Shown: piece after piece, positions 18,369 to 52,514 of the stretch
Layout of the letters: every line of letters starts with the position of its first letter
How positions within the stretch are numbered: the stretch's first letter is position 1
Assembly: GCA_964468345.1 (NCBI GenBank)
Contig: CAYXVZ010000012.1
Coordinates: 10,122 to 74,121, forward strand
Origin: an uncultured Heliobacteriaceae bacterium
Lineage (GTDB): Bacteria; Acidobacteriota; Blastocatellia; RBC074
DNA length: 64,000 bases
Reading direction: 5' to 3'
The notes under the pieces: generated by a model
Databases searched by the model: none
What the model saw: the letters and a program-made list of their open reading frames with translations, nothing else
What the model was told of the DNA's origin: nothing
Made by a program: the position numbers and the translations under genes

Positions 18369-18492
18369 AAGGCATTTCCTCTGATTCGGATTCGGAAGGG
18401 AAAGACGAGAACACGAAACAATCGAAACTTTTATTGTCGCTTCAACCTTGATCATCGTATCGGTCACTGGACCAAACAGCAAAAGAAGAGTT

Positions 18493-18582
18493 CACCGCGA
18501 AGAAACGAAGAGCACGAAGTTTGTTCCGTATTTTCTTCGTGCTCTTCGTTTCTTCGCGGTGAAAACATCTCCTTGAGTTCCA
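18493..18582. repeat. family A hairpin element (CACCRCGAAGAAACGAAGAGCACGAAG ... CTTCGTGCTCTTCGTTTCTTCGYGGTGAAAACAT), copy 1
   Basis: Perfect 27-nt terminal inverted repeats around a 15-nt loop. It sits between the start of the secreted protein gene and the stop of the kinase gene. Confidence 0.75.
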
Positions 18583-18640
18583 TGCCGCTGGCTGAAATGA
18601 CGACCATCGCTGTCATTTCGTTTGTTTCGTGCTCTCCCGA

Positions 18641-28621: not shown

Positions 28622-30868
28622 TTAGTGTAACTTCGTGCGACTTCGTGGATGAAATTCGTTTTCTTGAATTCGATCGTTACCCGGATGATAGGAGCGTTCG
28701 AGATGCGCGTTGATTTCCGCCAGCGTCATGCGAACCGGTTTGAACTTGCCCGCGGCATAGAGTTCGGCCTGATCCAGATGATGCGGCGATTTCGGATCGG
28801 GGCTTTGCCCGAGCACCAGGATGGATTGTGCGCGAAGCTTTTTGCCGAATTCGACGACCGCCACGAAGGAATTGCCCGCCGTGCCATAGCGGCGCTTCTG
28901 GCCTTTTTCCGCGCGCGCTGAATAGGTAAAGACAACGCCCGCCGGCCCGGGCCCGCCCGCGACGGGGAAGCTCGGCCGCGCGTCGCTGAAAGGCTCGTCG
29001 CCCGAGGTGTGGACGCGCTGCAACCGATTGATCTCGCCCCAGGCCACGCGCCACGTGCCGAATTCCTTTTCGAGATCCCGCATGGTTTCTTCGAGCTTTT
29101 TGAGCGGATCGTCGTCTTTGCTCTTCAGCTTTTCATGCGTGAGCACAAACAGCGTTGTCGGAATGGATTCGATCGTCGCGACGAAGTTCCAGTTCGCCAG
29201 CTCCCTGATCGCCGGCGCGAGCTGTTCCGCCCGGGGCCCCTCCGTTTCGCGAAGCGCAAACCACGCCGCCAGCATTCGCTGCACGATCGGCGGCGCTTCG
29301 TTCACCGTCGTATCCGTTGCCGCCTTCGTCCATTCCTCATACGTGAATTTTTCCTGCCCGGTCAGAATGCGCAGCGAAGACTTTGCTCGCGGCGTCTGTT
29401 CCTCGGGGGCGAGATAGGCCGGGAAGTCTTCTTTTCGCGGATTGCCGAAGGCCGTCATTTGAAAGGGCGTCGAATTGCAATTCTGCAAAAAGCCGGCGGG
29501 CGGATTCAGCCGTTGCGGCAGTTCAGCGAAGGCGTGATAGCCCTTCCATTCCGTTGCCGGATCGTCGCCCGCGACCGCTTTGCTCCAGTCGAATTTCGGA
29601 TCGCGTTTCGGAACCGCATTCCCGTGCACATAAAAGATATTGCCCGCGGCATCGGCGTAAAGCGTGTTCGAGCCGGTCAAGGCTCGCTGCGACAGCGCGA
29701 GTTTAAAGGCCGCGAAGCTTCTCGCCCGATTCATCGCGAATCGTTGCACCAGTTCGCCGCCCTCTTCCATCCGGCTCGCGCGGGCCGCAACCGCTTTGCC
29801 GTTTTGCAGGCCGATGATCGGCCCGTGATGCGTCTTGCGAAAGCGATAGGCGCGCGACTCGATGCCCGCGGCGGTTTTCACGCGGACTTCGTCGGTCCAT
29901 TCGATCGCCGTGCGATAGCCCGCGCCGTAGCGATAGGCCAGCGGCCGTTTGGGATCATCGAAGCTTTCGAGATAGCCATCGACCGTGTCGGCGTAGTTGT
30001 TCGTATGACTCCAGCCCAGCCATTGATTGAAGCCCGTGCGAATGTACGGCGTGCCGAGAATGGCAAAGCCGTACACATCGATGCCTTCCTCGCTCTGCAG
30101 ATGCGCTTCATAACGCTGGCCGCCGCCGAAAAATCCCACATGCGGATTGATAAAAAGCAGCGCATGGCCCGATGCGCTTTTCGACGGCCCGGCCGCCCAC
30201 ATGTTCGAGCCTTCCGTGGGCTCGTCGCAGGAAGAATTTTCACCACGAAGAAACGAAGAGCACGAAGAAAGAGAGTCTTTAAGCAAAATGGCTCCTGCTC
30301 TCTCTTCGTGCTCTTCGTTTCTTCGTGGTTTCAACATCTCTGCTGTATTTTGCAGCGGCTCACCGATTCGTATCTCTTCTCGTTTCAGCCCATAGCGGTT
30401 CAGCGCGCCGATGCGGCTCATTCGGCTCATGGCCAGCGTGTGCCAGGGTTCAAATTTCGTGAGCAGGCGCGGCTTCTGTTCCGGATGTTTTGCGATATAA
30501 AAATTGATCCCCGCGGCGAAGGCATCGCAGAGCGCCCGCTCGCGCGGCGGCATTGCGGCGTATTCGGCCTTCGAGCGTTTTTCGATTTCAAAGGCCCGAT
30601 AGAGCAGGTCGTTTTCCAATCCCTTCTCGCCTTCGATCTCCGCCTGCCGTCCCACGGCGCGAATGAAATCGGTTTCGAGCTGCCAGAAATTGTCTTCGCA
30701 TTGCGCATACATCAGGCCGAAGACGACCGCCGCATCCGTCTTGCCGAAGATATGCGGCACGCCGTACGAATCGCGATGGATCGTCACGGACTGCGAAAGG
30801 TCAACCCTTTGCGCAAATGCTGAGCCGACGGTAAAGACGAGGAATAGCGAAAGGAACAGGCTACGCAT
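28622..30868 (-). CDS. penicillin acylase family (Ntn-hydrolase) precursor, with a family A repeat inserted in-frame in the spacer region
   Basis: Signal peptide MRSLFLSLFLVFTVGSAFAQ. The beta-subunit N-terminal nucleophile motif SNMWAAGPSKSASGHALLFINPH is present. Spacer sequence [33 protein letters not shown] is encoded by the repeat copy at 30236..30343. Confidence 0.75.
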   Translation of the reverse strand: MRSLFLSLFLVFTVGSAFAQRVDLSQSVTIHRDSYGVPHIFGKTDAAVVFGLMYAQCEDNFWQLETDFIRAVGRQAEIEGEKGLENDLLYRAFEIEKRSKAEYAAMPPRERALCDAFAAGINFYIAKHPEQKPRLLTKFEPWHTLAMSRMSRIGALNRYGLKREEIRIGEPLQNTAEMLKPRRNEEHEERAGAILLKDSLSSCSSFLRGENSSCDEPTEGSNMWAAGPSKSASGHALLFINPHVGFFGGGQRYEAHLQSEEGIDVYGFAILGTPYIRTGFNQWLGWSHTNNYADTVDGYLESFDDPKRPLAYRYGAGYRTAIEWTDEVRVKTAAGIESRAYRFRKTHHGPIIGLQNGKAVAARASRMEEGGELVQRFAMNRARSFAAFKLALSQRALTGSNTLYADAAGNIFYVHGNAVPKRDPKFDWSKAVAGDDPATEWKGYHAFAELPQRLNPPAGFLQNCNSTPFQMTAFGNPRKEDFPAYLAPEEQTPRAKSSLRILTGQEKFTYEEWTKAATDTTVNEAPPIVQRMLAAWFALRETEGPRAEQLAPAIRELANWNFVATIESIPTTLFVLTHEKLKSKDDDPLKKLEETMRDLEKEFGTWRVAWGEINRLQRVHTSGDEPFSDARPSFPVAGGPGPAGVVFTYSARAEKGQKRRYGTAGNSFVAVVEFGKKLRAQSILVLGQSPDPKSPHHLDQAELYAAGKFKPVRMTLAEINAHLERSYHPGNDRIQENEFHPRSRTKLH
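30236..30343. repeat. family A hairpin element, copy 2 (inside the penicillin acylase CDS)
   Basis: The termini CACCACGAAGAAACGAAGAGCACGAAG ... CTTCGTGCTCTTCGTTTCTTCGTGG match copies at 18493 and 50693. Confidence 0.75.
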
Positions 30869-38018: not shown

Positions 38019-39776
38019 ATGTCGTTTACACCGAACTTTCAAAACCTCAGTCAACGGAAAAAGAAAATTTCGGGCCTGAAGCACGCAGCGGTTTTGCGGG
38101 CGGAGGCCAACAACTTCAAACCGATGCGCATGCAACCGACCCTGATCGACGGAGTGATCGAGGGCGGCGGGGCACTGGGCGCTGCCTATGCCGGCGCCTT
38201 GCGCGCTTTGCACGACAACAATATTTGGTTTGCCCGGGTGGCTGGTACATCCGCGGGGGCGATTACAGCCGCCATGATTGCGGTCGGTTTCAATGCGGAG
38301 GAAATTCAGTGGTTGTGCGCAGCATACGATCCGCACGCGCCGGTGCCGAAGAGTTTGAAAGATCTCCACATTGAAGAGCCGATTGATTTCTCGAGCTTTC
38401 TTGATTTTCCAAAATTGGAGGATATCAGTCGCCCTGCCATGCGACGGACGGCCTTATGGAAAGCGCTTAAGGGCGTGATTCTCGATGAGATCGGCCGTAT
38501 TGATATACCAATCCCGACAAAGGATGAAGTGACCGACGATATCGTCCGCAGGCTGCAAGCAGCGTCTGGCCTGGGAGATTTTTCGAATTTGGGCGAAATG
38601 ATTCGGAAGGTCTTATCCATTCCACTGGCCCCCTTGCCCGAGGAGAAACCTCATGTTCGAGATTTCCTGCCCAACACGGAAGGGCTTCGAATTCAGTTTG
38701 CAGACACCATGTGGAAGGCGATCGCAGGCAATTTCCCTGCAGAGCTGATGATGACGAATCTGCTTCATGAGGGAGGCATTTTTGAAGGTCGGAAGTTCGT
38801 GGAGGTCATCACGAAATTGTTCGGGAGTAAGATTCACAGAAATCCTAAGGCGACTGTCTTATTCAAAGATCTGCCGATTCCATTGGCGGTCATTGCCTCG
38901 GATTTGAAACAGGGGCAAATGCGTGTTTACAGCGCGCAGACAGATCCGAATATGATTGTGGTGGAGGCGATTCGACAGTCGATGAGCATACCATTTTTCT
39001 TTCAGCCCTGGATGAACGGCCGTTTTGTGGATGGCGGGCTCTGCTCGAACTTTCCGGCTTGGCTTTACACCGACGCAGGAGAGGCATACTGGCCGCCGGC
39101 ACTACGTGATAGCGCCCGTCCGAAAGTCGGTTTCGTCCTCGGCGAGAATTTGGCGGCGAGACCGGAATGGAATGTAGAGCCGCCTCGGTTCGCCGTGACC
39201 GGCAATCCGCCGCGCGTCGATGATGAACTCGTCCTCAAACCTCTCCTTGCCGAGAAAATCAAAGAGCTTGGGCTGTTTGCGCCTGGTGAATGGTCGACAT
39301 CCAAGTTGGAAGAATTTTTTGACGATTATGCGGTCCTGAGAGAAATGGCGGGAGTCAACGGGCTGGACAAGGAGAATCTGACGAGATCCTTGATCATCGC
39401 GGGATTGATGAGTGGCAGAAACTATTATGACGTCGTCATCCCGTTGCAGGGATATCACTGGCTCGATTTCAGCGTGAACAATGATGAGGACGATATGTGG
39501 GCGATGTGGGACCGCGCGTGGCATGCCACCTATCATGCTCTGGGAAGCTCCCAGGAAAATCGACCAGCACTGCTCCGCGCTACGATGATGCAAAACAGTC
39601 CGTATAAGGCAGGCCGATTGTGGCTGCCTGGAGTTTCAATCTCGGAGGGAATTCACACTGTCCTGAGCCCGATATCTACGAAATCGGGCTCAGGAAGCAT
39701 CGTTTTTTCCGCCGCTCAATTCGCGAAAGAGCCAGGCCTGCGCCATGCTCCATTCGCGCAGGACGGTGCGCGGTGA
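38019..39776 (+). CDS. patatin-like phospholipase domain protein (585 aa; N-terminal PNPLA domain plus an unknown C-terminal domain of about 250 aa)
   Basis: Oxyanion motif GGGALGAAYAGAL, nucleophile motif GTSAG, catalytic Asp motif VDGGLCSNFP. No signal peptide. An alternative start is at 38124 (MRMQPTLIDGV). Confidence 0.8.
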   Translation: MSFTPNFQNLSQRKKKISGLKHAAVLRAEANNFKPMRMQPTLIDGVIEGGGALGAAYAGALRALHDNNIWFARVAGTSAGAITAAMIAVGFNAEEIQWLCAAYDPHAPVPKSLKDLHIEEPIDFSSFLDFPKLEDISRPAMRRTALWKALKGVILDEIGRIDIPIPTKDEVTDDIVRRLQAASGLGDFSNLGEMIRKVLSIPLAPLPEEKPHVRDFLPNTEGLRIQFADTMWKAIAGNFPAELMMTNLLHEGGIFEGRKFVEVITKLFGSKIHRNPKATVLFKDLPIPLAVIASDLKQGQMRVYSAQTDPNMIVVEAIRQSMSIPFFFQPWMNGRFVDGGLCSNFPAWLYTDAGEAYWPPALRDSARPKVGFVLGENLAARPEWNVEPPRFAVTGNPPRVDDELVLKPLLAEKIKELGLFAPGEWSTSKLEEFFDDYAVLREMAGVNGLDKENLTRSLIIAGLMSGRNYYDVVIPLQGYHWLDFSVNNDEDDMWAMWDRAWHATYHALGSSQENRPALLRATMMQNSPYKAGRLWLPGVSISEGIHTVLSPISTKSGSGSIVFSAAQFAKEPGLRHAPFAQDGAR

Positions 39777-40325
39777 GATTGCCAGCACTTCCGCCGTTTC
39801 TTCCACGGTCAGGCCGCCAAAATAGCGCAATTCAATGATGCGGCTTTTTCGTTCATCCAGTTGGGCAAGGCTGTCGAGCGCATCATCCAATGCGACCAGA
39901 TCGGCGCTGCGTTCATTGGATTCCCGTTCCGCTTCGACCAGCGAGACGCGCACGATTTCGCCGCCGCGCTTTTGCGCACGCTGCTGGCGGTACTCATCCA
40001 CCACGATGCGTCGCATGAGTTGTGCGGCAACCCCGAAAAAATGGGCGCGATTCTGCCAGCGAGCGCTTTTCCAATCGATCAAGCGTAAATAGGCCTCATT
40101 GATCAGGGCCGAGGTTTGCAGCAGATGGCCAGGACGTTGCCGGTTTAAATACCGGCGCGCGATCCGCTGCAATTCAACCTGCACGATGGGGACCAACTGG
40201 TCCAGCGCCTCCTGCCTGCCATCGCTCCAGGCTTCGAGCAACTGGGTGATTTCATGCTGTCTGGGTGATTCCATGGATTGAATTTTCATGAGCTGCTCAG
40301 GATCTTTCCGGGCTGCAACAACCAA
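39690..40325 (-). CDS. ECF-type RNA polymerase sigma factor with N-terminal extension (Sig70_X6-like)
   Basis: Region 2 LINEAYLRLIDW and region 4 ELRYFGGLTVEETAEVLAISPRTVLREW. N-terminal ITQLLEAWSDGRQEALDQLVP extension. The 3' end overlaps the patatin gene by 87 nt in convergent orientation. Confidence 0.8.
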   Translation of the reverse strand: MVVAARKDPEQLMKIQSMESPRQHEITQLLEAWSDGRQEALDQLVPIVQVELQRIARRYLNRQRPGHLLQTSALINEAYLRLIDWKSARWQNRAHFFGVAAQLMRRIVVDEYRQQRAQKRGGEIVRVSLVEAERESNERSADLVALDDALDSLAQLDERKSRIIELRYFGGLTVEETAEVLAISPRTVLREWSMAQAWLFRELSGGKNDAS

Positions 40326-41261: not shown

Positions 41262-44238
41262 TTAGTTCCGGACCTCCGCCAACAGAAGATCGCTTTTTAC
41301 CTGGGAATGCAGATAGGTGAGCCAGCGTCCATCGGGAGAGACGCTTAAGCCCCGCGAGCCCGCGCTGAAGGAGGAATTCAATTTCGCGACGGTTGAAATC
41401 CTGCCCGTTGCAAAGGGATAAAATTCGATCAGGGATTGGCTTGGCCCGACATTCGTGCCGAAAAAGATGCCGGTTTGGGTGACATCCCACATGGACCAGT
41501 ACCCGGCCTTATGCGTGTCGGTCAGAAGAGTTTCCGCGCCCGTGGTCAGGTCGATGCGCCAGAGGCCGGGAGTTTGCCTCTTCCTGACATACACCAGAAA
41601 TTTGCCATCCATGGCTTCGTGGGGCTCGATGCCGCCGTGCTTCGTGATTTGCACCGGCTCGCCGCCGCTCACCGGGACCTTGTAAATTTGCGACTCCCCG
41701 GTGCGGTCTGAACTGAAGTAAATCCAGTTGCCGTCTCGCGACCAACTGGGCGTTGAGTTATTGAAATTGTTTTGAACGAGCTTCCGTTGTTCGCCGGTTT
41801 CAAGGTGAAGTGCGAAAATGGCAGCCTTGCCGTCGAGATAGCGCGTAAAAGAAATCTGCTTTGAATCCGGCGACCAGTTTGGCCAGCCCGGCGAAAATTT
41901 CGGGTCGGAGATCAGTTGTCGCTGGTTTTGTCCATCGCTGTCGCACATCCATAACGTTTCGTTGCCGCTCAGCGCCGTTTGATACACCAGCTTTGTTCCG
42001 TCGGGCGAATAACGTTGATAAAACTCGATCTTGGTGGATCCGATTAACTTTTCGGGCGGCTGGTTGGTGACAGCAGTTCCTTTCAATCCCAGCCGCATTA
42101 CATCCACGTCATAATCGGCTTTGACATAGCACAGACGCCGGTTCTGGCGGTCATACACTCCTCCCATCAGGATGGCGTCGGGGCCCGTGAGCCGCTTGTA
42201 TTGCAATGTATTCACATCCATCTGAACAAGACCGATGGATGTGTCTTCACCCGGAGCCACGCCTGAGAAAAGTAATTCGTGATCATTTCCCAACCAGGCC
42301 AGGGAATTGATTCGTCGCATGTCTTTTGTTACTTGCCGGGCTTCTCCGCCTGCGACGGGAATCAACATAACTTCGCGACGGCTATCGGAAGCCGGCGGGT
42401 TCCTGACAAAGGCGATGGTTTTTGCATCGGGGGAAAATGCGGGCAGAAAATCACCCAGGCTTCCCGCCGCGGGGTTGGTTAATACCCGTCTTTCTCCCGT
42501 CGCCAGATTCAACAGGTTGATCCGGAGCGGCGACTGAGACGATTCACGATCTCCGAAAGCGAGCAGCGTCCCATCCGGCGACCAGGATAACTCCGAGCCG
42601 GCGATTCCCCCGGGTCGCTGCGGCGAAAGGCTGGTCAGCTTGCGCTCCGCACCTCCTCCCGTCGGAAGGACATAGATTCCGCCTTCGGATTGCGTGCGGC
42701 GAGTAAAGGCCAGACTGGCGCCGTCCGGAGACCAGGCCGGATCGTTGTCGTTTGCAGGATGGTTCGTCAGACGAAGCGTCCTTTCGCCATCGATCTCTTT
42801 GATATAGAGATCGAGATTTTCATTTTTCTCCCCTCCATAGGAGAAGGCGATTGATTTTCCATCGGGGGAAAACGCCGGCGTCGATTCCGCGCCGGAAAAT
42901 GTGGTCAGCGGATTGGGCTTGGTTATCGTCAATGGCGAAAAGGCCGGCAGTGCGGGGCGCGACTTCATTCGATAAATGGCATATCCACCGCCCGCCAGGC
43001 CAAGGCTGATCGCGGCAAGCAGGGCCGCCCGCAAATAGTTGCCGCGTTGGAAGAGTCTTTCGCCGCTCGCGGTATCCAGCGCAGCGCTGATTTCATTGGT
43101 CGATGATTCAGGCCGGAATGCCGACGTCGCGTCGCGCTGGTCATATGTCGGGGCGTCGGCCCGCAGCCGAAGTTGTTTCAGGTCGATCAGTACTTCTTGA
43201 ATGGTCTGATAGCGTTCCGCGCGATCTTTGTGCAACGCTTTCTGCACCACCCTTTGCCATTCCGCCGAGGCAAGTGTCATTGGTTCAGGCTCGCGATTCA
43301 GGATGGCGCCGATCACCTCGAAGATTGTGGCGCCCGGAAACGGTTTGCGCCCTTCCAGCATTTCATACAGCACGATGCCCAGGCTGAAGATGTCCGTCCG
43401 CGCATCGACTTTTTCGCCGCGCGATTGCTCCGGCGACATGTAACTGGCCGTCCCGATCACCATGCCGGAATGCGTCAGGCTGGATTGTGCGCCATTGACG
43501 AGATCTACATCGAGTTGCGCCAGCCCGAAATCGAGCACTTTTACATAACCGTCCCGCCGGATCATGAGGTTTTCGGTCTTGATGTCTCGGTGAATGATGC
43601 CGGCTTCGTGCGCGACGGCCAATGCCTGGCAAACCTGGATGGCAATATCGGCGGCCTCGGCCGATGACATCGGAGGGCCTTCGCGCAATCGGCTGTGCAG
43701 CGTTTGGCCGTCGACATATTCGGTCGCCATAAAATAGTCGGCTCCAGCGTGTCCATGATCGAATAGTGTGATGATATTGGGATGATTGAGCGCCGAAATC
43801 GCAACGGCTTCCTGCGCAAAGCGTCGCACACGCGCCGCGTCGTCGGCAAATGACGCGGGCAGAAGTTTCAACGCCACCTTGCGATGCAATCGCGTGTCTT
43901 CCGCCAGCCAGACCTCTCCCATGCCGCCTTTGCCGAGCAATGAGACTACAAGGTACTGATTGACTTCGCGCGGCATTGCCATCGCCGGCGCCATGGATTG
44001 GCCTTCATGCAGCGTTTGATCGTCCTGAGCGGCCAGTCCCAGCGCATGATCTTCCAACGCAAATCCGGCGATAAAGCTGCCTGCTTCCGCATGCGCAGCC
44101 AACAGCGACTGGACTTCGTGCCGCAGCTTTACATCTGTGCCGCAGACCTCGGTCAGGAAAACTTCGCGCTCCGGCGCATTCAGTTCCAACGCGCGGTAAT
44201 AGAGCTGCTCGATTTGGCGGAAACGTTCAGCGTTCATT
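41262..44238 (-). CDS. Ser/Thr protein kinase fused to a TolB-like (PD40/WD40-like) beta-propeller
   Basis: Start at MNAERFRQIEQLYYRALEL. Kinase motifs HRDIKTENLMI and DFGLA. TM helix, then repeated SPDGKSIAF/WSPDGASLAF/FSPDAKTIAF propeller blades. Confidence 0.8.
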
Positions 44239-44613
44239 CGTGCTCCAGGCTGCGAGCAAGTGCATGATTTAGGGCTTTGCGGGCGGTCCCATGGCAGTTG
44301 GTCCCCGAAACGTCGACTTTGGAATTGCGGGCGGAATGTAGCACGAGGCCATTCAGCACCGATAGCGGAGAAATACATAGCAAGAAAATAATTTCTTCCG
44401 GGTGTCATTTTCCGGGTGGGGATTTTCGAATGTATTGATAGGAACCGGCGGCGCGAAGTGGTGTGATGGGGCGGGAGCAATGGGTGGTGTCGGCAGTCCC
44501 AGGGTTCAGAAAAAATTCAAGGAAAATTCAATCCGGGTTCAGGATTTGAATCGTAGAGCTGCTCTATAAAATAACTTCAAATCCGTGGACATAACATTGA
44601 AAAGGCAAGGACT

Positions 44614-46044
44614 ATGATAAAACCGCATAAAATCGTGCTTATTCTGGCATCGGCCATTGCAGCCTGGGACGGTGCCCATTTGATTCCCTCAGGGTATGCA
44701 AACGGCCCTGCCGAGATGACTTTCAATAAAGACGTAGCGCCGATTCTGTTCAAAAGCTGCGCCGAATGCCATCGTCCCGGCGAAGCCGCGCCCTTCTCTG
44801 TGTTGAGCTACAAAGACACGCGTCCATGGGCGCGATCGATTCGCGAGAAGGTCGTCGATCGTTCGATGCCGCCGTGGCACGCCGATCCGCACGTCGGCGC
44901 GTGGGCCAATGATCGAAGATTATCGCAGAAGGAAATCGACACGATCACGGCCTGGGTCGAGCAGGGCGCGAAAGAGGGCGACGCGAAGGACCTGCCGCCC
45001 GCGCTGCAGTTCGCTGAGGGCTGGACCATCGGCAAACCGGATCTCGTGATTCCGATGCCCGAAGCCTTTACCCTCGAACCGAGCGGCCCGGATGAGTATC
45101 AATACTTCGAAGTCGATCCCGGTTTCAAACACGATGTATTCATTCAACGCGCCGAAGCGCGGCCCGACAATCGCCGCATCGTTCATCACATCATCGCTTT
45201 CATCAAGCCGCCGATGCCGGCCGATGGTCCCGAGCCCTCGCCAGAGCCCTCGAAAGAAGAAATGGAAAAACAGCGCGCCGCGGCCGAGCGCGAATCCACG
45301 CTTTATCAGGAAGGATTCCTGCTGCGAACCAAGGCGGATGTGCCCGTGCACGATCAGGGCTGCGATTTGCCGAATGGAGGCACGGGACAGAACCGCAGCG
45401 GCAAAGAAGACGCCTTTGGCGACATGAGCTGGCTGGCGGCCTATGCGCCCGGCACGCCGCCGATTTCGCTGCCGGCCAATACCGCGATTCGCGTGCCGGC
45501 CGGCGCGAAGATCGTCTTTCAAATGCACTATTCCAAAGTCGCGGGCAGCGTGCAGAAAGATCGTTCCTCGGTCGGTTTGATCTTCGCCAAACAGCCGCCC
45601 GAGAAAGAGCTCTTCGTTCGTGCCGTGTCGAATACCTATTTCCGCATTCCGGCCGGCGCGGCGAATCATCGCGTCACGGCCTGCTGGACGGTGCCCGAAG
45701 ACATCCGCGTGCAATCCTTCGGTCCGCATATGCACTTCCGCGGCAAGGCACAGCGCATCGAGGCTTTTTATCCCGATGGGCGGCGCGAAATGTTGCTCGA
45801 TGTTCCGAACTACGATTTCGCGTGGCAGACTTTTTACGAACCGAAACGATGGATCGCTTTGCCCAAGGGAACGCGCCTCCTCGTGACATCCATCTTTGAC
45901 AACTCGGCGAAGAACCGCTTCAACCCCAATCCAGCCGCCGCCGTTCGCTGGGGCGACCCCACCGCGGATGAAATGATGATCGCTTTCGTCAGCTATACCA
46001 AAGACGCGCAGCGCCTCAGAGACGCCGCAGGCCTCCTGAAATAA
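44614..46044 (+). CDS. periplasmic copper type II ascorbate-dependent monooxygenase-like protein (PHM/DBH-like) with N-terminal CxxCH motif
   Basis: Signal peptide and CAECH. His/Met ligand pattern HHIIAF ... QMHYSK ... GPHMHFRG ... DEMMIAF matches the CuH (HH..H) and CuM (HxH..M) sites of PHM/DBH. Confidence 0.5.
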   Translation: MIKPHKIVLILASAIAAWDGAHLIPSGYANGPAEMTFNKDVAPILFKSCAECHRPGEAAPFSVLSYKDTRPWARSIREKVVDRSMPPWHADPHVGAWANDRRLSQKEIDTITAWVEQGAKEGDAKDLPPALQFAEGWTIGKPDLVIPMPEAFTLEPSGPDEYQYFEVDPGFKHDVFIQRAEARPDNRRIVHHIIAFIKPPMPADGPEPSPEPSKEEMEKQRAAAERESTLYQEGFLLRTKADVPVHDQGCDLPNGGTGQNRSGKEDAFGDMSWLAAYAPGTPPISLPANTAIRVPAGAKIVFQMHYSKVAGSVQKDRSSVGLIFAKQPPEKELFVRAVSNTYFRIPAGAANHRVTACWTVPEDIRVQSFGPHMHFRGKAQRIEAFYPDGRREMLLDVPNYDFAWQTFYEPKRWIALPKGTRLLVTSIFDNSAKNRFNPNPAAAVRWGDPTADEMMIAFVSYTKDAQRLRDAAGLLK

Positions 46045-46209
46045 AGCCTGCTGCATTTGCAAAGGCCGCAGATGAACACAGAAAAACGCGGATCTGCGTT
46101 TCTCTGCGCTCATCTGCGGCTTTGCTTTTGGTTGGGGGAAAAGTCGGATGGAAAAGAGAAATGCAGATGAGATGAACGCAAATTGGCGGCCCTCTGCGTT
46201 CATCCGCGG

Positions 46210-47157
46210 CTATTTCTTCAATGAAGCGCTCGAGCGAACGGCGAATTTCTGCACGCGCCAGTTTTTGATTTCCGCGGCATACAGCGCGCCGGTGGAATCC
46301 AGGGCGAGGTGGTGCACGAAGTCGAGTTTGCCCGGAATTTTGCCGTAGCCGCCGAGCGTGCCCAGGATCTTTCCGTCCATGGAGAGTTTGACGATGCGGT
46401 TGTTCAGGCCGTCGCACATATAGAGGCATTTCTCTTTGGCCGAATAAGCCAGGCCCCAGGGCGCGCCGAGGCCGGTCCATTTGCCGAGGAATTTGCCGTC
46501 TTTATCGAAGATCTGAATGCGTTCATTCGTTCGATCCGCAACATAGACGCGCTCGTCGGAATCGAGGCAGACATCGTGCACGAGATTGAATTCGCCGTCG
46601 CCCGTGCCTTTGCGGCCCCAGTGCGCGATGTACTCGCCGTCCTTATTGAATTTGATCACGCGCGCATTCTTATAGCCGTCGGACACGAACAGATCGCCGT
46701 TCTTGCCGAAGGCGATCGCCGTCGGTTCGTTGAAGGCGTCCTTGCTGTCGTTGTCGCCCGCGATGCCCTGGCGATTGCCGAGGACCATCAGCACGCGGCC
46801 TTCGGGCGTGCATTTGATCAGGACGTGGCCTTTGACATCGATCAGCCAGAGATTGCCGTCGGGATCGACGCGGATGCCATGTGAGGAAATGATCTTGATA
46901 TCGGGCCAGGCTTGCAGGAATTTGCCGTCGCGGTCGAATTGCATCACCGGATGCGCGCCGCGATTGAAGACCCAGACGTTATCCATCTTGTCCGTGGCCA
47001 CGCCGGAGACCTCGCCGAAATTCCAGCCTTTCGGCAGCTTCGCCCAATCCGCCACGACCTGATGCGGCAGGGCGGGGCCGGATTGCAACTGCGCGAACAC
47101 GGAGGGAAGAAACAAAATCGCGAGGAGCAGAGAGAGCGAGAAAATTTTCATGCGCAT
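46210..47157 (-). CDS. secreted NHL-repeat six-bladed beta-propeller protein (peptidyl-alpha-hydroxyglycine alpha-amidating lyase-like)
   Basis: Signal peptide MRMKIFSLSLLLAILFLPSVFAQ. Repeated NHL blades (VWVFNRG, LFVSDGYKNARVIKF, VYVADRTNERIQIF, LYMCDGLNNRIVKL, ALYAAEIKNWRVQKF). Confidence 0.65.
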   Translation of the reverse strand: MRMKIFSLSLLLAILFLPSVFAQLQSGPALPHQVVADWAKLPKGWNFGEVSGVATDKMDNVWVFNRGAHPVMQFDRDGKFLQAWPDIKIISSHGIRVDPDGNLWLIDVKGHVLIKCTPEGRVLMVLGNRQGIAGDNDSKDAFNEPTAIAFGKNGDLFVSDGYKNARVIKFNKDGEYIAHWGRKGTGDGEFNLVHDVCLDSDERVYVADRTNERIQIFDKDGKFLGKWTGLGAPWGLAYSAKEKCLYMCDGLNNRIVKLSMDGKILGTLGGYGKIPGKLDFVHHLALDSTGALYAAEIKNWRVQKFAVRSSASLKK

Positions 47158-47184
47158 CGGGGCCTCCACATTTTTAGGCAGCAT

Positions 47185-48819
47185 TTATCGGGTTGTCGGC
47201 GTGGCGAGAAAACGCGGCACGCCGGTTTCATTCGCAAACGACCAGCCGCTCAGGTACGCCAGCTTCAGAATCTTTTCCATCTTCACGAAATTGATGCGAT
47301 CGACGGTGTCGGTCGGTTGATGGTAGTCCGGATGAAAGCCGGTGAACCACCACATCGCGGGAATGTCGCGCAGCGCAAAGGGGAACTGATCGCTGCGTTG
47401 AAACACATTGAGCGCGGCGTCGTTGTCCCATTTGTAGTTGAGCTTCAGGCCGATGCGGGCGTTCTCGCGTTCGACGACGGCGCGATAATCCGGGCTGTTG
47501 ATGACGCCGATCAGATTCAATTCGTTCGACGTGTCGGCCGCGATCTCGATCAGGCCGTCGGTTTGCGTGCTGGGCGCTTCGTTGCGGCCGATCATATCGA
47601 AGTTGATCACGGCGCGCGTCGTTTCGATCGGCCGCAGCGGATGCGCGACGTAATAATACGATCCGAGCAGGCCGCGCTCTTCCGCGGCAAACGAAGCGAA
47701 GAGCAGCGAACGTTTCGGCTTCGCCGGATTGGCCGCAAAGGCGCGCGCCAGTTCGATGACGCCGACCGTGCCCGAGCCGTTGTCGTCCGCGCCGGGAAAG
47801 ATCTTTCCTTCGCGGATGCCGTCGTGATCATAATGGCTCGAAAAGACGATCGTTTCGTTTTTCAATTGCGGGTCGCTGCCCTCGATCAGACCCAGAACGT
47901 TATGGCTCATTCCGCGGCGATGCTCGGCGTTGACGACGCGAATCTCGACCGAGGTGTCGGCCAGTGCCATCGACTGCGGCTTGAGGCTTGTATCGATTGC
48001 CGTTTGCAGATCGGCGGCCTGTTTGCCGGAGGGCGCGAGCAGTTTCGCCGCGAGCGCATCGCTGATCGTCAGCAAGGGAATCGTGGTTTCGCTGTCGGCC
48101 AGCGCCTGCTGGGCATTTCGCATGACGCGTTCGAGAATGCCGGGCGTGCGCGCGATCCGCTCCTGGCTCGACGGATGCCTGCGATTCGGCTCCGACACGA
48201 CCAGCACGGCCACCGCGCCGTGCTTTTGCGCGTTGAGAACCTTCAGCCGCGAATTCGCATGACGCGAATTGCCGATTCCGTTGAAGACGGATTTCGGATC
48301 GTTCTCCTGAGGCTCGTGCTCGAAGACGAGAACGACTTTCCCCTTTGCGTCCAGGCCCGCATAATCGTCATAGCCGAACTCCGGCGCGGTGACGCCATAA
48401 CCGGCGAAGACCACCGGCGCAGTGACCGTCACTTCCCGCGGAAAGCTGCCGAAGAAATCCTTGATGTAATCGAACCGCTCTTCGCGCCCGCCGCGGCGAA
48501 GCGAGATGCGCATCCCGCGCGGGTCGGCCTTATATTCGATCAGCTCGACTTCCTGCAGATAGGAATCGCCCGCCACCGGCTTCAAGCCTGCCTTGGCGAA
48601 CTCCGCGGCGACGAATTGAATGGCCGCTTCCGATCCGCGTTGCAGCGACATCCGCCCTTCGAGCGCGGGCGAGGCGAGAAAGGTCAGATCGGCCCGCAGG
48701 TTCTTTTCGCGAATGGCATTCAGCCCCGTCGCGGTTTTCGAATCGACGCCGTTCTGCACGATCGTGGCCGCGCCGAGCAATAAAAACAGGCCTTTGATAA
48801 GCAACGTATTCTTTTTCAT
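47185..48819 (-). CDS. M28-family zinc aminopeptidase with PA domain (secreted)
   Basis: Signal peptide MKKNTLLIKGLFLLLGAATIV. M28 metal-binding motifs SHYDHDG, ADDNGSG and EERGLLGS. Confidence 0.75.
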   Translation of the reverse strand: MKKNTLLIKGLFLLLGAATIVQNGVDSKTATGLNAIREKNLRADLTFLASPALEGRMSLQRGSEAAIQFVAAEFAKAGLKPVAGDSYLQEVELIEYKADPRGMRISLRRGGREERFDYIKDFFGSFPREVTVTAPVVFAGYGVTAPEFGYDDYAGLDAKGKVVLVFEHEPQENDPKSVFNGIGNSRHANSRLKVLNAQKHGAVAVLVVSEPNRRHPSSQERIARTPGILERVMRNAQQALADSETTIPLLTISDALAAKLLAPSGKQAADLQTAIDTSLKPQSMALADTSVEIRVVNAEHRRGMSHNVLGLIEGSDPQLKNETIVFSSHYDHDGIREGKIFPGADDNGSGTVGVIELARAFAANPAKPKRSLLFASFAAEERGLLGSYYYVAHPLRPIETTRAVINFDMIGRNEAPSTQTDGLIEIAADTSNELNLIGVINSPDYRAVVERENARIGLKLNYKWDNDAALNVFQRSDQFPFALRDIPAMWWFTGFHPDYHQPTDTVDRINFVKMEKILKLAYLSGWSFANETGVPRFLATPTTR

Positions 48820-48836
48820 GGACCCTCCGCGAAAGA

Positions 48837-49175
48837 TCAATCGCCCAGCCGTTTGGTCTCGGCGCGTTCAATGATGATGGCCATCGGCATCTCGCCCGTC
48901 TCCGCGGCTTTCGGGCAATGACGAAGCCCTTTCGGAATCACGATGCCTTCGCCTGCCTTCAGGATGTGATCGCCCGCTTCCGTTTGAAAGTTGATCTCGC
49001 CGCTCAGGACAACGAAGCATTCGTCTTCATTGTCGTGCGCGTGCCAGCGTTCGAACTCTCCCTGAAACTTCACGAGACGAATCGCGAAATCATCTACATT
49101 GGCCAGATTGACCGGCGCATAGGCCTTCGTAATCTGGTCGCCGGTTTGCGGAATCGAAAATGTTTTGACTTCCAT
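48837..49175 (-). CDS. cupin domain protein
   Basis: Small beta-barrel with the cupin His pattern (WHAHDNEDECFVVLSGE ... GLRHCP). Confidence 0.55.
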   Translation of the reverse strand: MEVKTFSIPQTGDQITKAYAPVNLANVDDFAIRLVKFQGEFERWHAHDNEDECFVVLSGEINFQTEAGDHILKAGEGIVIPKGLRHCPKAAETGEMPMAIIIERAETKRLGD

Positions 49176-49349: not shown

Positions 49350-50624
49350 CTATTTCTTCACGATTGCCCCGCCCTTCATTACCCACTTCACGCGTTCGAG
49401 TTCCGTGACGTCTTTGGTCGGATCGCCGTCGACGGCGATCAGGTCCGCGAACTTGCCGGATTCGATGGCGCCGATGCTCTCTTCGAGGCCGAGCAGTTTG
49501 GACGCGTGGACCGTCGCGGTCTGGATTGCCTGAACCGGCGTCATCCCCAGTTTGACGTAAACCGCGAATTCGCGGGCATTCAATCCATGCGGATAGACGG
49601 CCGCATCGGTGCCGAAGACGACGGGAACGCCCATTTTAAAGGCCGCGCCGATGTTCTTTCGCATTTCCGGCATGACGACTTTGGCCTTTGCCACCAGCGG
49701 CGCCGGCACACGCAGTTTTTCGTAGTTCTCCATAAACCAGTCGGTCAGGTAGAGCGTGGGCACGAGATAGGTGCCGCGCGCTTTCATCATCTTCACGGCC
49801 TCTTCGTCGATGTAGGTGCCATGCTCGATCGAATCGACGCCCGCCTGCACGGCGTACTTGATGCCGTCGCCGCCGTGCGCGTGCGCGGCGACTTTGCGGC
49901 CCGCGCGATGGGCTTCCTCGACGATGGTCTTCATCTCTTCGAGCGTATACTGCGCGGCCTTCGGATCGTCGCCATAAGAGAGCACGCCGCCCGTCGAACA
50001 GATCTTGATCACATTTGCGCCGTACTTGATCACTTCGCGCGTTTTCTGCATCACGCCCGGCACGCCGTCGGCGACGCCGTCCGCCTTGTGATGAAACTCG
50101 AACGGCAACAGGTTCTCATCGCAATGGCCGCCCGTGATGCCCAGGCTCGGCCCCGAGGCGACGATGCGCGGGCCGGGCACATCGCCGGCATCGATTGCAT
50201 CGCGCAGGGCGATGTCGGCATATCCGCGCGCGCCTACATTGCGCACGGTCGTGAAGCCGGCATCGAGCGTCATCCGCGCATTGCGCGCGCCGACCAGCGC
50301 TTCGCGCGGAATCGAAATCGCCATTGAATTGATTGTCGCCAGATCGAAGGTCAGGTGCGTGTGGCTGTCGATCAGGCCCGGCAATAGCGTTTTGGCTCCC
50401 AGGTCGATGACCTCCGCGCCCGCGGGAATCATGGCATTCGCGCCCGCCGCAACGATGCGCCCGTTTTCGATCACGACGACGGCATTCGAAATCAACGATC
50501 CGGTTTTGACATCCAGCATCCGGGCCGCTTTAACGGCCACCGCTCGCTGTTGGGATTGCGCCGGTTGCGGGACGGATGAAAGCGACGCGAGAGCGAGAAC
50601 GAGCAAGAGAAGGACAACGCGCAT
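49350..50624 (-). CDS. secreted metal-dependent amidohydrolase (imidazolonepropionase/Xaa-Pro dipeptidase-like)
   Basis: Start at [15 protein letters not shown] (signal peptide). Amidohydrolase motif GLIDSHTHL, conserved HAHGG, and the C-terminal D of the metal site. The ORF continuation upstream through repeat A3 is rejected. Confidence 0.75.
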
Positions 50625-50692
50625 AGAAGGGTTCCTTTGCGAATGAGGCATTGACGATCGTTTGGGCCAACGTGGCAACAAGCGAAAGAAGA

Positions 50693-50866
50693 ATTCACCA
50701 CGAAGAAACGAAGAGCACGAAGAAAGATGGAAAAAAAGAGGCCGAGAAAGGGATGGAAAGAATTGACAGATCCGGCGGTAAATTTCTCTCCGTCTCTCTA
50801 TCTCTTCATCTTTCTTCGTGCTCTTCGTTTCTTCGTGGTGAAAACATTTCTTTGAATTCCAGACCA
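50693..50866. repeat. family A hairpin element, copy 3 (longest copy, about 170 bp)
   Basis: GAATTCACCACGAAGAAACGAAGAGCACGAAG ... CTTCGTGCTCTTCGTTTCTTCGTGGTGAAAACATTTCTTTGAATTC. It is flanked by GAATTC on both sides. Confidence 0.75.
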
Positions 50867-51013
50867 CGCGCCGAAACGGCGATCAACACCGCGAATGATT
50901 CCATACTACGGGAAATTTCCTGAGAATTTCGGTGGGCGGATCATACGGCGCATCGGGCTTGCGAGTCCAGACGTGGTATACTGCGGAAAATTTTTCAGCA
51001 ATGCTCAGGGCAA

Positions 51014-51460: not shown

Positions 51461-51651
51461 ATCCGGTCATATATGCGCTGTTTCTTAAAAAAACAAATCT
51501 TTACACTTTTTCCGACCAAAGCGCGTTTGCCTGCCTCTTATCGCGTGTAAGACAGCAAGGCCCTCTTTGCTGGGAATAAACAGACCCGCATTTTGCGGGC
51601 AATGGAATCAAACCGACCCGATGCGGTTTGGTGAGGATAAGGAAGGTATAT

Positions 51652-51972
51652 ATGAAAAAGCTTTATACGATTTTGACCTTTGTGATGTTGGCCACCGTTC
51701 TGTCCGCCAGCGCGCTGGCGCAGAACAGCCGCGGCATCGACCGCCGGCAGCATGAACAGCGGGAGCGCATCCAGCAGGGCGTTCGCTCCGGCGAACTGAC
51801 CCGACGGGAAGCGAACCGGCTGCGCTTTGATCAGTTTCAGATCCGCCGCCAGGAACGCCGCGCGGAAGCCGATGGCGTGCTGACGGCCCGGGAGCGTTTC
51901 CGCATCAATCGCAATCTCAATGAATCCAGCCGGGATATCCGTCGTCTGAAAAACAATCGCCGCGATCGCTAG
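51652..51972 (+). CDS. small secreted protein, Spy/CpxP-like (LTxxE/Q repeat), paralog 1
   Basis: Signal peptide MKKLYTILTFVMLATVLSASALA. Motif IQQGVRSGELTRREANRL...VLTARERFRI. Confidence 0.45.
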   Translation: MKKLYTILTFVMLATVLSASALAQNSRGIDRRQHEQRERIQQGVRSGELTRREANRLRFDQFQIRRQERRAEADGVLTARERFRINRNLNESSRDIRRLKNNRRDR

Positions 51973-52178
51973 GAGAACGCTCCCTGATTGATTGTCTGTA
52001 GGAATCGGGGCTGTACCAGCTTTGTGTCAGCCCCGATTCCGATGAAACCGACGGTCAATTATTTTCGACCATCCTCCATCTCACGCGCTCTCAAGGGGCG
52101 TACAATGCGCGTGGCCTCGCTCGTGTGGCACTGTGAATGAACTTTTTATTCTTTGCTTTGAAGGAGCTAACCAACACC

Positions 52179-52514
52179 ATGAAAAAAACAATTTCTCTTC
52201 TGTCTGTGATTACCTTTTCGCTTCTGCTGTCGATGGTTTCGTTCGCGCAGGACGGATCCAATAAGACCCCGGGTGTCCGCAATCGTCAGGGGAATCAGCA
52301 GCGCCGCATCCGGCAGGGCGTTCGCTCCGGCGAACTGACCAAGAGCGAAGCCATTCGCCTCGAAAAGGAACAGAAAGAGATTCAGCAGGAGAAGAAAGAA
52401 GCCAAGGCCGACGGCGTCGTCACCGCGGAAGAGCGCAAGGATATTCATCAGGAACAAAATCAGGCCAGCCGCCGCATCTATCGCAAGAAGCACAATAGCC
52501 GGGATCGGAAGTAA
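52179..52514 (+). CDS. small secreted protein, Spy/CpxP-like, paralog 2
   Basis: Signal peptide MKKTISLLSVITFSLLLSMVSFA. Motif IRQGVRSGELTKSEAIRL...VVTAEERKDI, shared with paralog 1. Confidence 0.45.
   Translation: MKKTISLLSVITFSLLLSMVSFAQDGSNKTPGVRNRQGNQQRRIRQGVRSGELTKSEAIRLEKEQKEIQQEKKEAKADGVVTAEERKDIHQEQNQASRRIYRKKHNSRDRK

Follow-up and report, generated by a model that had tools for sequence, protein, structure and literature searches.

In a 64,000-nucleotide stretch of the genome of an uncultured Heliobacteriaceae bacterium (GenBank assembly GCA_964468345.1, contig CAYXVZ010000012.1, positions 10,122 to 74,121 of the forward strand; placed by GTDB in the Acidobacteriota, Blastocatellia, RBC074), which is referred to here as the window, two convergent open reading frames (ORFs) lie 165 bp apart. 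The first, gene A, encodes a secreted protein in which a c-type heme motif is followed by a two-domain copper monooxygenase core of the PHM/DBH type, and the second, gene B, encodes a secreted NHL propeller of the PAL type (Table 1). PHM and PAL are the two halves of animal peptidylglycine alpha-amidating monooxygenase (PAM), and the original prediction, made from the DNA letters and their translations, placed both ORFs correctly and proposed that they may form a split bacterial peptide-amidation pair. The results reported here bear out the assignment of each protein and point away from the partnership, so that A and B are probably two independent exported enzymes, with the family to which A belongs being a more interesting lead than the pair itself.

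Table 1. Positions of the two genes, the parts of protein A and the surrounding features, in window coordinates.
Feature	Position	Strand	Description or basis
Gene A	44614..46044	+	476 aa; exported homologue of the PHM/DBH-type binuclear copper monooxygenases, with a fused heme c module
Predicted signal peptide of A, about residues 1-29	44614..44700	+	Boundary approximate, read from sequence
Cytochrome c module of A, about residues 35-125	44716..44988	+	PF13442; invariant C49/C52/H53/M85
PHM-like N-terminal (CuH) subdomain of A, about residues 140-325	45031..45588	+	Ligands, alignment, model
PHM-like C-terminal (CuM) subdomain of A, about residues 330-465	45601..46008	+	PF03712, hhalign, conservation
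Gene B	46210..47157	−	315 aa; exported six-bladed NHL propeller of the PAL family
M28 aminopeptidase with PA domain	47185..48840	−	PF04389 (E 2e-39), PF02225
Small cupin	48837..49175	−	PF07883 (E 6e-13)
Ser/Thr kinase with PD40 beta-propeller	41262..44480	−	Pfam; divergent from A
Extracytoplasmic function (ECF) sigma factor, PF07638 type	39690..40325	−	Pfam (E 2.5e-53); upstream of A
Four TTCA motifs with exact 11-bp spacing	44505..44541	+	Upstream of A, between A and the divergent kinase
Repeat CTGCGYTCATCYGCGG, present three times in the A-B spacer	46066-46081; 46104-46119; 46194-46209	−; +; +	

Gene A, its copper core and its family

It is clear from ligand conservation, profile alignment and structural comparison, all of which agree, that A has the CxxCH motif, the CuH and CuM ligand set and the PHM fold that were read from its sequence in the original prediction. 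The N-terminus (MIKPHKIVLILASAIAAW...) is hydrophobic and signal-like, as is that of B, and forms a helix over residues 4-21 in the AlphaFold model; the attachment of c-type heme in itself implies export. The heme motif is C49-x-x-C52-H53 (nt 44758-44772), with M85 (nt 44866-44868) as the candidate axial ligand. Cytochrome_CBB3 (PF13442) matches this module at E 8e-5, with 23.3 bits against a cut-off of 27, and the cytochrome c 4rlr is a weak match to it in a sequence-only search of the PDB; the heme segment is poorly modelled, with pLDDT values below 50 for residues 50-64. The CuH ligands are H191 and H192 (nt 45184-45189, in VHH) together with H305 (nt 45526-45528, in FQMHYSK), and the CuM ligands are H372 and H374 (nt 45727-45735, in PHMH) together with M454 (nt 45973-45975, in DEMM). 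All of these heme and copper residues are invariant in 35 close homologues. Among 44 more distant representatives at 35-52% identity, C49, C52, H53, M85, H191, H192 and H305 are again invariant, and H372, H374, R376 and M454 are each at least 90% conserved. As all six copper ligands are conserved, A does not belong with proteins lacking them, which is the outcome that would have removed it from this class.

Recognition of the copper core by single-sequence methods is weak. PF03712 matches residues 362-463 at E 0.014 (15.4 bits against a gathering cut-off of 23) and PF01082 matches at E 0.099 (13.3 bits against a gathering cut-off of 30); no Pfam match of A reaches its gathering score, no NCBIfam model matches A, and PHM was not found by sequence-only searches of the PDB with either the single sequence or the family profile. 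The direct profile comparison proposed in the original prediction was run with hhalign against rat PHM, for which the reference sequence is 100% identical to 4e4z (PAM residues 45-356), and gave a probability of 85% and an E-value of 5.7e-6, with the ligands aligned: FQMH305YSK of A is paired with LQVH172YGD of PHM, PH372MH374 with VH242TH244, and DEM454 with DEM314. The pairing of VH191H192 with VH107H108 of PHM is found when the N-terminal fragment is aligned alone and is weak (E 0.057). In the CuH subdomain this motif precedes a variable stretch, inserted at about residues 200-270 and roughly 50-70 residues long, that PHM does not have and that the local alignment skips.

The AlphaFold model of A (pLDDT 80, pTM 0.78), in which the CuH subdomain is built of strands over residues 144-324 with a helix at 214-227, leads to the same class. 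In a Foldseek search of the PDB, ranks 1-23 are PHM and ranks 1-31 are all rat PHM or human DBH, the best match having an E-value of 8e-15 and a target TM-score of 0.65 over about 330 aligned columns that cover both subdomains. No bacterial member of the family is present among the Foldseek PDB matches of A.

Textbook accounts of non-coupled binuclear copper monooxygenases rest on PHM, DBH and TBM, which have been studied in animals and draw their electrons from ascorbate. Like PHM (1phm/1sdw) and DBH (4zel), A consists of two beta-sandwich subdomains, with a His3 CuH site and a His2Met CuM site at aligned positions and the methionine within a DEM motif. It differs from these ascorbate-dependent animal enzymes in its c-type heme module at the N-terminus, and from PHM in the insertion after the HH motif. 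Identity to PHM and DBH is just 16-18%, and A is a bacterial, periplasmic protein that stays below the Pfam gathering scores. C250 (nt 45361-45363) and C357 (nt 45682-45684) are the sole invariant cysteines of A beyond the heme motif, and they align with C114 in the N subdomain and C227 in the C subdomain of PHM, respectively. In PHM these two cysteines pair with other cysteines, partners that A lacks, and a disulfide joining the two subdomains through C250 and C357 is possible in A.

The part of PHM that A does not share is the substrate anchor. In PHM, Arg240 holds the C-terminal carboxylate of the substrate, with Tyr318 and Asn316 making secondary contacts (PMC12164859). The position of R240 is G370 in A and G, A, M or W in its family, never Arg; that of N316 is I456 in A and I, L or V in the family; and that of Y318 is F458 in A and F or W in the family. 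As this anchor is replaced, the substrate of A is probably not a peptidyl-glycine bound in the manner of PHM. Judged by its aligned residues, A is thus missing what fits PHM for peptidylglycine substrates and keeps everything that defines the wider copper monooxygenase class.

The family to which A belongs is very large. More than 7,800 homologues were scored, many with a precomputed PF03712 match and with "cytochrome c" among their names, and an exhaustive search, clustered at 50% identity, returned 17,420 representatives. Of the 150 that rank highest, about half exceed 540 aa in length, and in 7 of 10 long relatives sampled (P0241, P0255, P0258, P0267, P0293, P0335 and P0377) an N-terminal AhpC-TSA/Redoxin domain precedes the cytochrome c-PHM-like module. 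Some relatives add hydrolase, ankyrin or M56 domains, and P0244, which is long and has no redoxin domain, carries EF-hands. The relative P0250 scores 25 bits with PF03712 and 20.5 bits with PF01082, the latter under the cut-off of 30. These multidomain proteins, found in Acidobacteriota and other bacteria and annotated by domain, share the cytochrome c and PHM-like module with A at 38-50% identity, whereas A has neither the AhpC-TSA/Redoxin domain nor C-terminal extras and is present as a single copy outside any tandem array. The redoxin-cytochrome c-PHM-like fusions suggest an electron chain running from thiol to heme to copper, and the family as a whole would appear to be one of diversified periplasmic oxidases with built-in electron delivery. 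Our literature searches on bacterial PHM-like proteins found no paper on a bacterial cytochrome c-PHM-like family.

Gene B, a PAL-type propeller

The description of B in the original prediction as a secreted six-bladed NHL propeller of the PAL type with conserved histidines is supported by profile alignment, by the model and by invariant residues. NHL repeats are detected by Pfam at E 3e-22, and the AlphaFold model (pLDDT 90) is a six-bladed propeller of 24 strands. Among the 50 Foldseek matches listed, PAL (3fvz) has the highest query TM-score (0.79), over the full length, with a root-mean-square deviation of 2.5 A over 324 columns. Rat PAL, represented by a reference sequence 100% identical to residues 15-327 of 3fvz (PAM 506-818), aligns with B in hhalign at 99.7% probability and E 4e-27, colinearly over B residues 48-309, and BLASTP gives 32% identity over a best segment of 208 columns.

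The catalytic residues follow the same pattern. The zinc site of PAL is formed by His585, His690 and His786 (Chufan et al. 2009, as cited in PMC10900485; numbering checked against the 3fvz/5wm0 sequence), and these correspond to H93, H194 and H282 of B, which stand at an equivalent point of the repeat in blades 2, 4 and 6. Tyr654 of PAL corresponds to Y162 (in SDGY), Arg706 to R209 (in VADR) and Arg533 to R66 (in FNRG). R66, H93, Y162, H194, R209 and H282 are invariant in 30 homologues of B, so that the mapping of its His, Tyr and Arg residues onto the PAL zinc site is complete, and loss of the metal-site residues, which would have counted against the assignment, is not seen. At the calcium site, V520 and L587 of PAL, which contribute through the main chain, are V53 and I95 in B; the calcium ligand Asp787 is H283 in B and N, S or T in its family, and Met784 is Phe in B and Phe or Tyr in the family. 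ExiPAL, the PAL of Exiguobacterium, has the same pattern of zinc, Tyr, Arg and calcium-site residues, with the Asp kept (PMC10900485).

PMC10900485, citing a patent, reports that experiments have identified PAL activity in several bacterial proteins; bacterial PALs are active in vitro, with their natural functions unclear (PMC10900485). Close homologues of B are already named as PAL-family proteins by NCBI, and one as "peptidylamidoglycolate lyase" by JGI. On its sequence, B is a predicted Acidobacterial addition to this known bacterial family. It resembles rat PAL in its six-bladed NHL propeller, its zinc His triad, its Tyr and both Arg residues, and differs in having no long blade-1/2 loop and in being a stand-alone, secreted protein encoded beside an M28 peptidase and unfused to PHM.

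TRIM-NHL domains, such as those of TRIM71/Lin41, Thin and Brat, are cytosolic and bind RNA or protein, and to our knowledge no catalysis is known for them. They share NHL repeat motifs and the six-bladed fold with B, and the lowest E-values for B, both by sequence and by Foldseek, are to the NHL domains of TRIM71 and Thin, as local matches made repeat by repeat. At the position of the zinc histidines of B, the Thin repeats shown mostly have Arg, Ala or Trp. A TRIM-like binding propeller was considered for B and rejected, as the TRIM matches are repeat-wise and local and B retains the PAL catalytic set.

Gene order and conservation of linkage

The comparative data show different neighbours for A and for B. 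The closest relatives of both proteins are from Acidobacteriota, mostly Blastocatellia. On the A side, synteny was examined in GTDB species genomes at the 80 loci with the best relatives of A. At least 1.5 kb of downstream sequence is available at 69 of them, and none of the 80 has a B orthologue within 10 kb; one has an NHL gene, 24% identical to B. An ECF sigma homologue is present at 10 of the 80, including four of the five closest (L001, L002, L004 and L005). In these four, whose orthologues are 68-77% identical to A, the divergent ECF sigma gene is kept, usually together with the kinase, and the genes downstream are unrelated; an ECF sigma gene is also found upstream of the A orthologues in L171 and L172. 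What is conserved beside A is the ECF sigma gene, in divergent orientation and usually accompanied by a Ser/Thr kinase gene. At 43 of the 80 loci, two to six A paralogues follow one another in co-directional tandem arrays, and single metagenome-assembled genomes (MAGs) hold at least 8 copies of the family, where the window has one. Arrays reaching up to six paralogues in Blastocatellia were seen at L012 (9974-19491), L016 (2469-10726), L010, L035, L052 and L071. The clustering of neighbours was unsupervised, with crude ORF calls and single linkage, and its 196-member "A cluster" includes 31 CxxCH proteins without copper motifs.

On the B side, no A homologue or PHM-like gene is present in five distinct contexts of B orthologues (70-81% identical). 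Within 8 kb of 80 metagenomic B-related loci, a distant A paralogue (36-54% identity) occurs at three, none of them adjacent, and three paralogues in roughly 650 kb are not clearly above background, given that a genome can hold at least 8 copies, itself a lower bound. In the MAG JAYTCQ, the A paralogues and the B orthologue are on different contigs. The pairing of a PHM-like gene with an NHL gene, whose conservation was to be expected of a two-component system, is thus seen at 0 of 80 A loci and, with a distant A paralogue, at 3 of 80 B loci. One B-related locus, L096, has a B relative and an A paralogue that are convergent and 1.4 kb apart, with a PQQ-type propeller between them and an SGL lactonase-like gene alongside. 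It was considered as a second PAM-like cluster and rejected, as an SGL lactonase-like protein, a PAL-like protein, a PQQ-type propeller and an A paralogue make no coherent amidation set.

Peptidase genes recur beside B orthologues: M28 in the window, M28/M20 and S9 in L169, M2 in L085 and Tricorn in L084. The commonest neighbour, at 17 of 83 loci, is a protein of roughly 1,090 aa, an apparent CarboxypepD_reg/TonB-type outer-membrane barrel, as called from its own sequence and from Pfam on the first gene of L084. Amino-acid or major facilitator superfamily transporters also recur beside the PAL-like B orthologues (L084, L085-L088 and L169). In the window, the M28 gene immediately precedes B on the − strand, and its stop codon abuts an in-frame ATG at 47184 that is an alternative start for B and would add 9 residues; the end of the cupin gene, also on this strand, overlaps the start of the M28 gene by 4 nt. 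The cupin, the M28 aminopeptidase and B are probably co-transcribed from one putative operon. Neither M28-B nor cupin-M28-B could be retained as a conserved operon, as the M28 protein of the window has no homologue in the 80 B loci. Overall, the neighbours of B suggest peptide or nitrogen scavenging more than peptide maturation.

Between A and B, the repeat CTGCGYTCATCYGCGG has 3 matches against 0.04 expected, all confined to the spacer (46066..46209). Two of the copies pair into a long hairpin, with a fold of -73.7 kcal/mol and a z of -5.2, which is probably a bidirectional terminator between the convergent genes. On the other side of A, the kinase ORF is listed from a TTG codon, and its alignment with homologues begins at Met 82 (nt 44237); this Met is likely to be the true start, with the listed TTG too far upstream, in which case the A-kinase intergenic region widens to about 376 bp. 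The phased TTCA pattern upstream of A has 1 match in the window against 0 in 100 shuffles. It is also present upstream of the A orthologue in L004 (1181-1217) and is degenerate in L002, L171 and L001, and it may be a candidate site for a regulator or for the ECF sigma factor.

Several other features of the window were recorded. The kinase has two further paralogues, one at about 20.3-21.2 kb and the other at about 25.7-26.5 kb. A self-inverted palindromic repeat element at 50694-50842 (75% over 160 nt), with related copies at 18478-18606 and 30231-30329, looks like a miniature inverted-repeat transposable element or a repetitive extragenic palindromic element, and it inflates the N-terminus of the amidohydrolase ORF at 49350..50867. 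Two adjoining genes on the + strand (51628-51972 and 52137-52514) encode paralogous small proteins of 114 and 125 aa that have signal-like N-termini and a common charged motif (QQGVRSGELT..EA.RL...).

Two enzymes or one pathway

Taken together, these data lead us to regard two independent exported enzymes, a heme c-wired copper monooxygenase of the PHM/DBH type and a PAL-family zinc lyase in a peptidase operon, as the likely content of the locus. The folds, the conservation of the ligands, the arrangement of the genes and the absence of a conserved linkage are matters of observation; how electrons travel, which reactions are catalysed, how the genes are regulated and what the substrates are is what we infer. 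The cytochrome c module of A would take electrons from a periplasmic donor, which in many of its relatives may be the fused thioredoxin-like redoxin domain, and the heme would reduce the copper at CuH (H191, H192 and H305); that at CuM (H372, H374 and M454) would then activate O2 and hydroxylate a C-H bond of the substrate, which is probably something other than a peptidyl-glycine bound in the PHM manner. That a heme c donor replaces ascorbate in A, as the original prediction suggested, is a reasonable inference, and it fits the frequency of redoxin-cytochrome c-PHM-like fusions among the relatives of A. The ECF sigma factor and the Ser/Thr kinase encoded divergently from A probably control its expression. 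B would be a zinc-dependent lyase of the PAL family that cleaves carbinolamides, that is, the C-N bonds of alpha-hydroxy-amides, and its putative co-transcription with the cupin and the M28 aminopeptidase suggests a role in peptide or nitrogen scavenging.

Several points weigh against treating the two enzymes as independent. Both halves of a PAM-type system are present, exported and adjacent in one genome, for which we estimate, roughly, a chance on the order of 1-2%. The fold and ligand features of A and B are themselves far beyond chance; their adjacency is a single observation, made post hoc. L096 provides a second near-adjacency of a B relative and an A paralogue, again convergent. R376 of A shares a strand with the CuM histidines and might anchor a carboxylate in place of R240, although this is conjecture. 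Finally, we know of no source of the hydroxyglycine substrate for bacterial PALs, and the A family is an obvious candidate for its producer.

A looser partnership, in which members of the A family hydroxylate carbons beside amide nitrogen and PAL lyases encoded elsewhere in the genome clear the carbinolamides in a dispersed periplasmic oxidative N-dealkylation, is the alternative that fares best, and we consider it unlikely. The two families are abundant in the same Acidobacteriota lineages and occur together in JAYTCQ, the arrays of A paralogues are as expected for varied substrates, and, according to PMC10900485, what bacterial PALs do in nature is unclear. However, there is no linkage signal from either the A or the B side, and the recurring neighbours of B are peptidases, transporters and TonB-type barrels rather than oxidases. 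PAL homologues active in vitro also occur in Exiguobacterium (PMC10900485).

It is a little less probable still that one or both proteins fall outside these enzyme classes, with A serving as a cytochrome for electron transfer or copper handling and B as a TRIM-type binding propeller. The failure of every Pfam match of A to reach its gathering score, the absence of an NCBIfam match and the rank of TRIM71 and Thin as the best matches of B by sequence and Foldseek E-value would all be consistent with such proteins. Against this stand the six copper ligands of A, conserved across homologues at 35-52% identity, the local nature of the TRIM matches as opposed to the colinearity of PAL over the whole of B and its highest query TM-score among the matches listed, and the invariance of the zinc His triad of blades 2, 4 and 6 and of the Tyr and Arg residues.

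A true split PAM, with A adding a hydroxyl group to the C-terminal glycine of secreted peptides, B splitting the resulting hydroxyglycine to leave peptide amides and adjacency reflecting partnership, would account for the PHM fold and six copper ligands of A, the complete PAL catalytic set of B, the signal peptides on both and the near-adjacency at L096, but is very unlikely, as the genes are convergent with a hairpin between them, B appears to belong to a separate cupin-M28 transcription unit, the pairing is missing from the 80 closest loci of A and from nearly all B loci, R240, N316 and Y318 (roles in PMC12164859) are not conserved in A, and no Gly-ending precursor lies nearby. The last of these findings, that none of the 25-110 aa ORFs in the intergenic regions from 39 to 52.6 kb ends in Gly, is a weak test, since substrates could be encoded elsewhere; together with the missing anchor it argues against a pair. 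The two-component amidating system of the original prediction is therefore not supported, and the adjacency of A and B is, as far as gene order and homology indicate, accidental rather than the trace of a conserved two-step system. Neither form of sequential partnership, the split PAM or the unlinked one, is supported by the comparative data, and each is unlikely.

The negative linkage result stops a "split PAM operon" reading from entering annotation. Bacterial PALs are already used for enzymatic peptide amidation, and B adds an Acidobacterial member to these. There is also a slim chance that the A family constitutes a set of ascorbate-independent PHM-type monooxygenases, supplied with electrons by their own heme c and in many relatives by a fused redoxin as well, which, with unlinked PAL lyases, would carry out a dispersed periplasmic oxidative cleavage beside amide nitrogen. 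If true, such a system could include the removal or amidation of C-terminal glycine, and it would be a bacterial counterpart, or even a precursor, of animal PAM. If the A family is, as the multidomain fusions suggest, one of periplasmic oxidases with built-in electron delivery, it would represent a self-contained electron-delivery version of PHM/DBH chemistry that could help studies of mechanism as well as biocatalysis.

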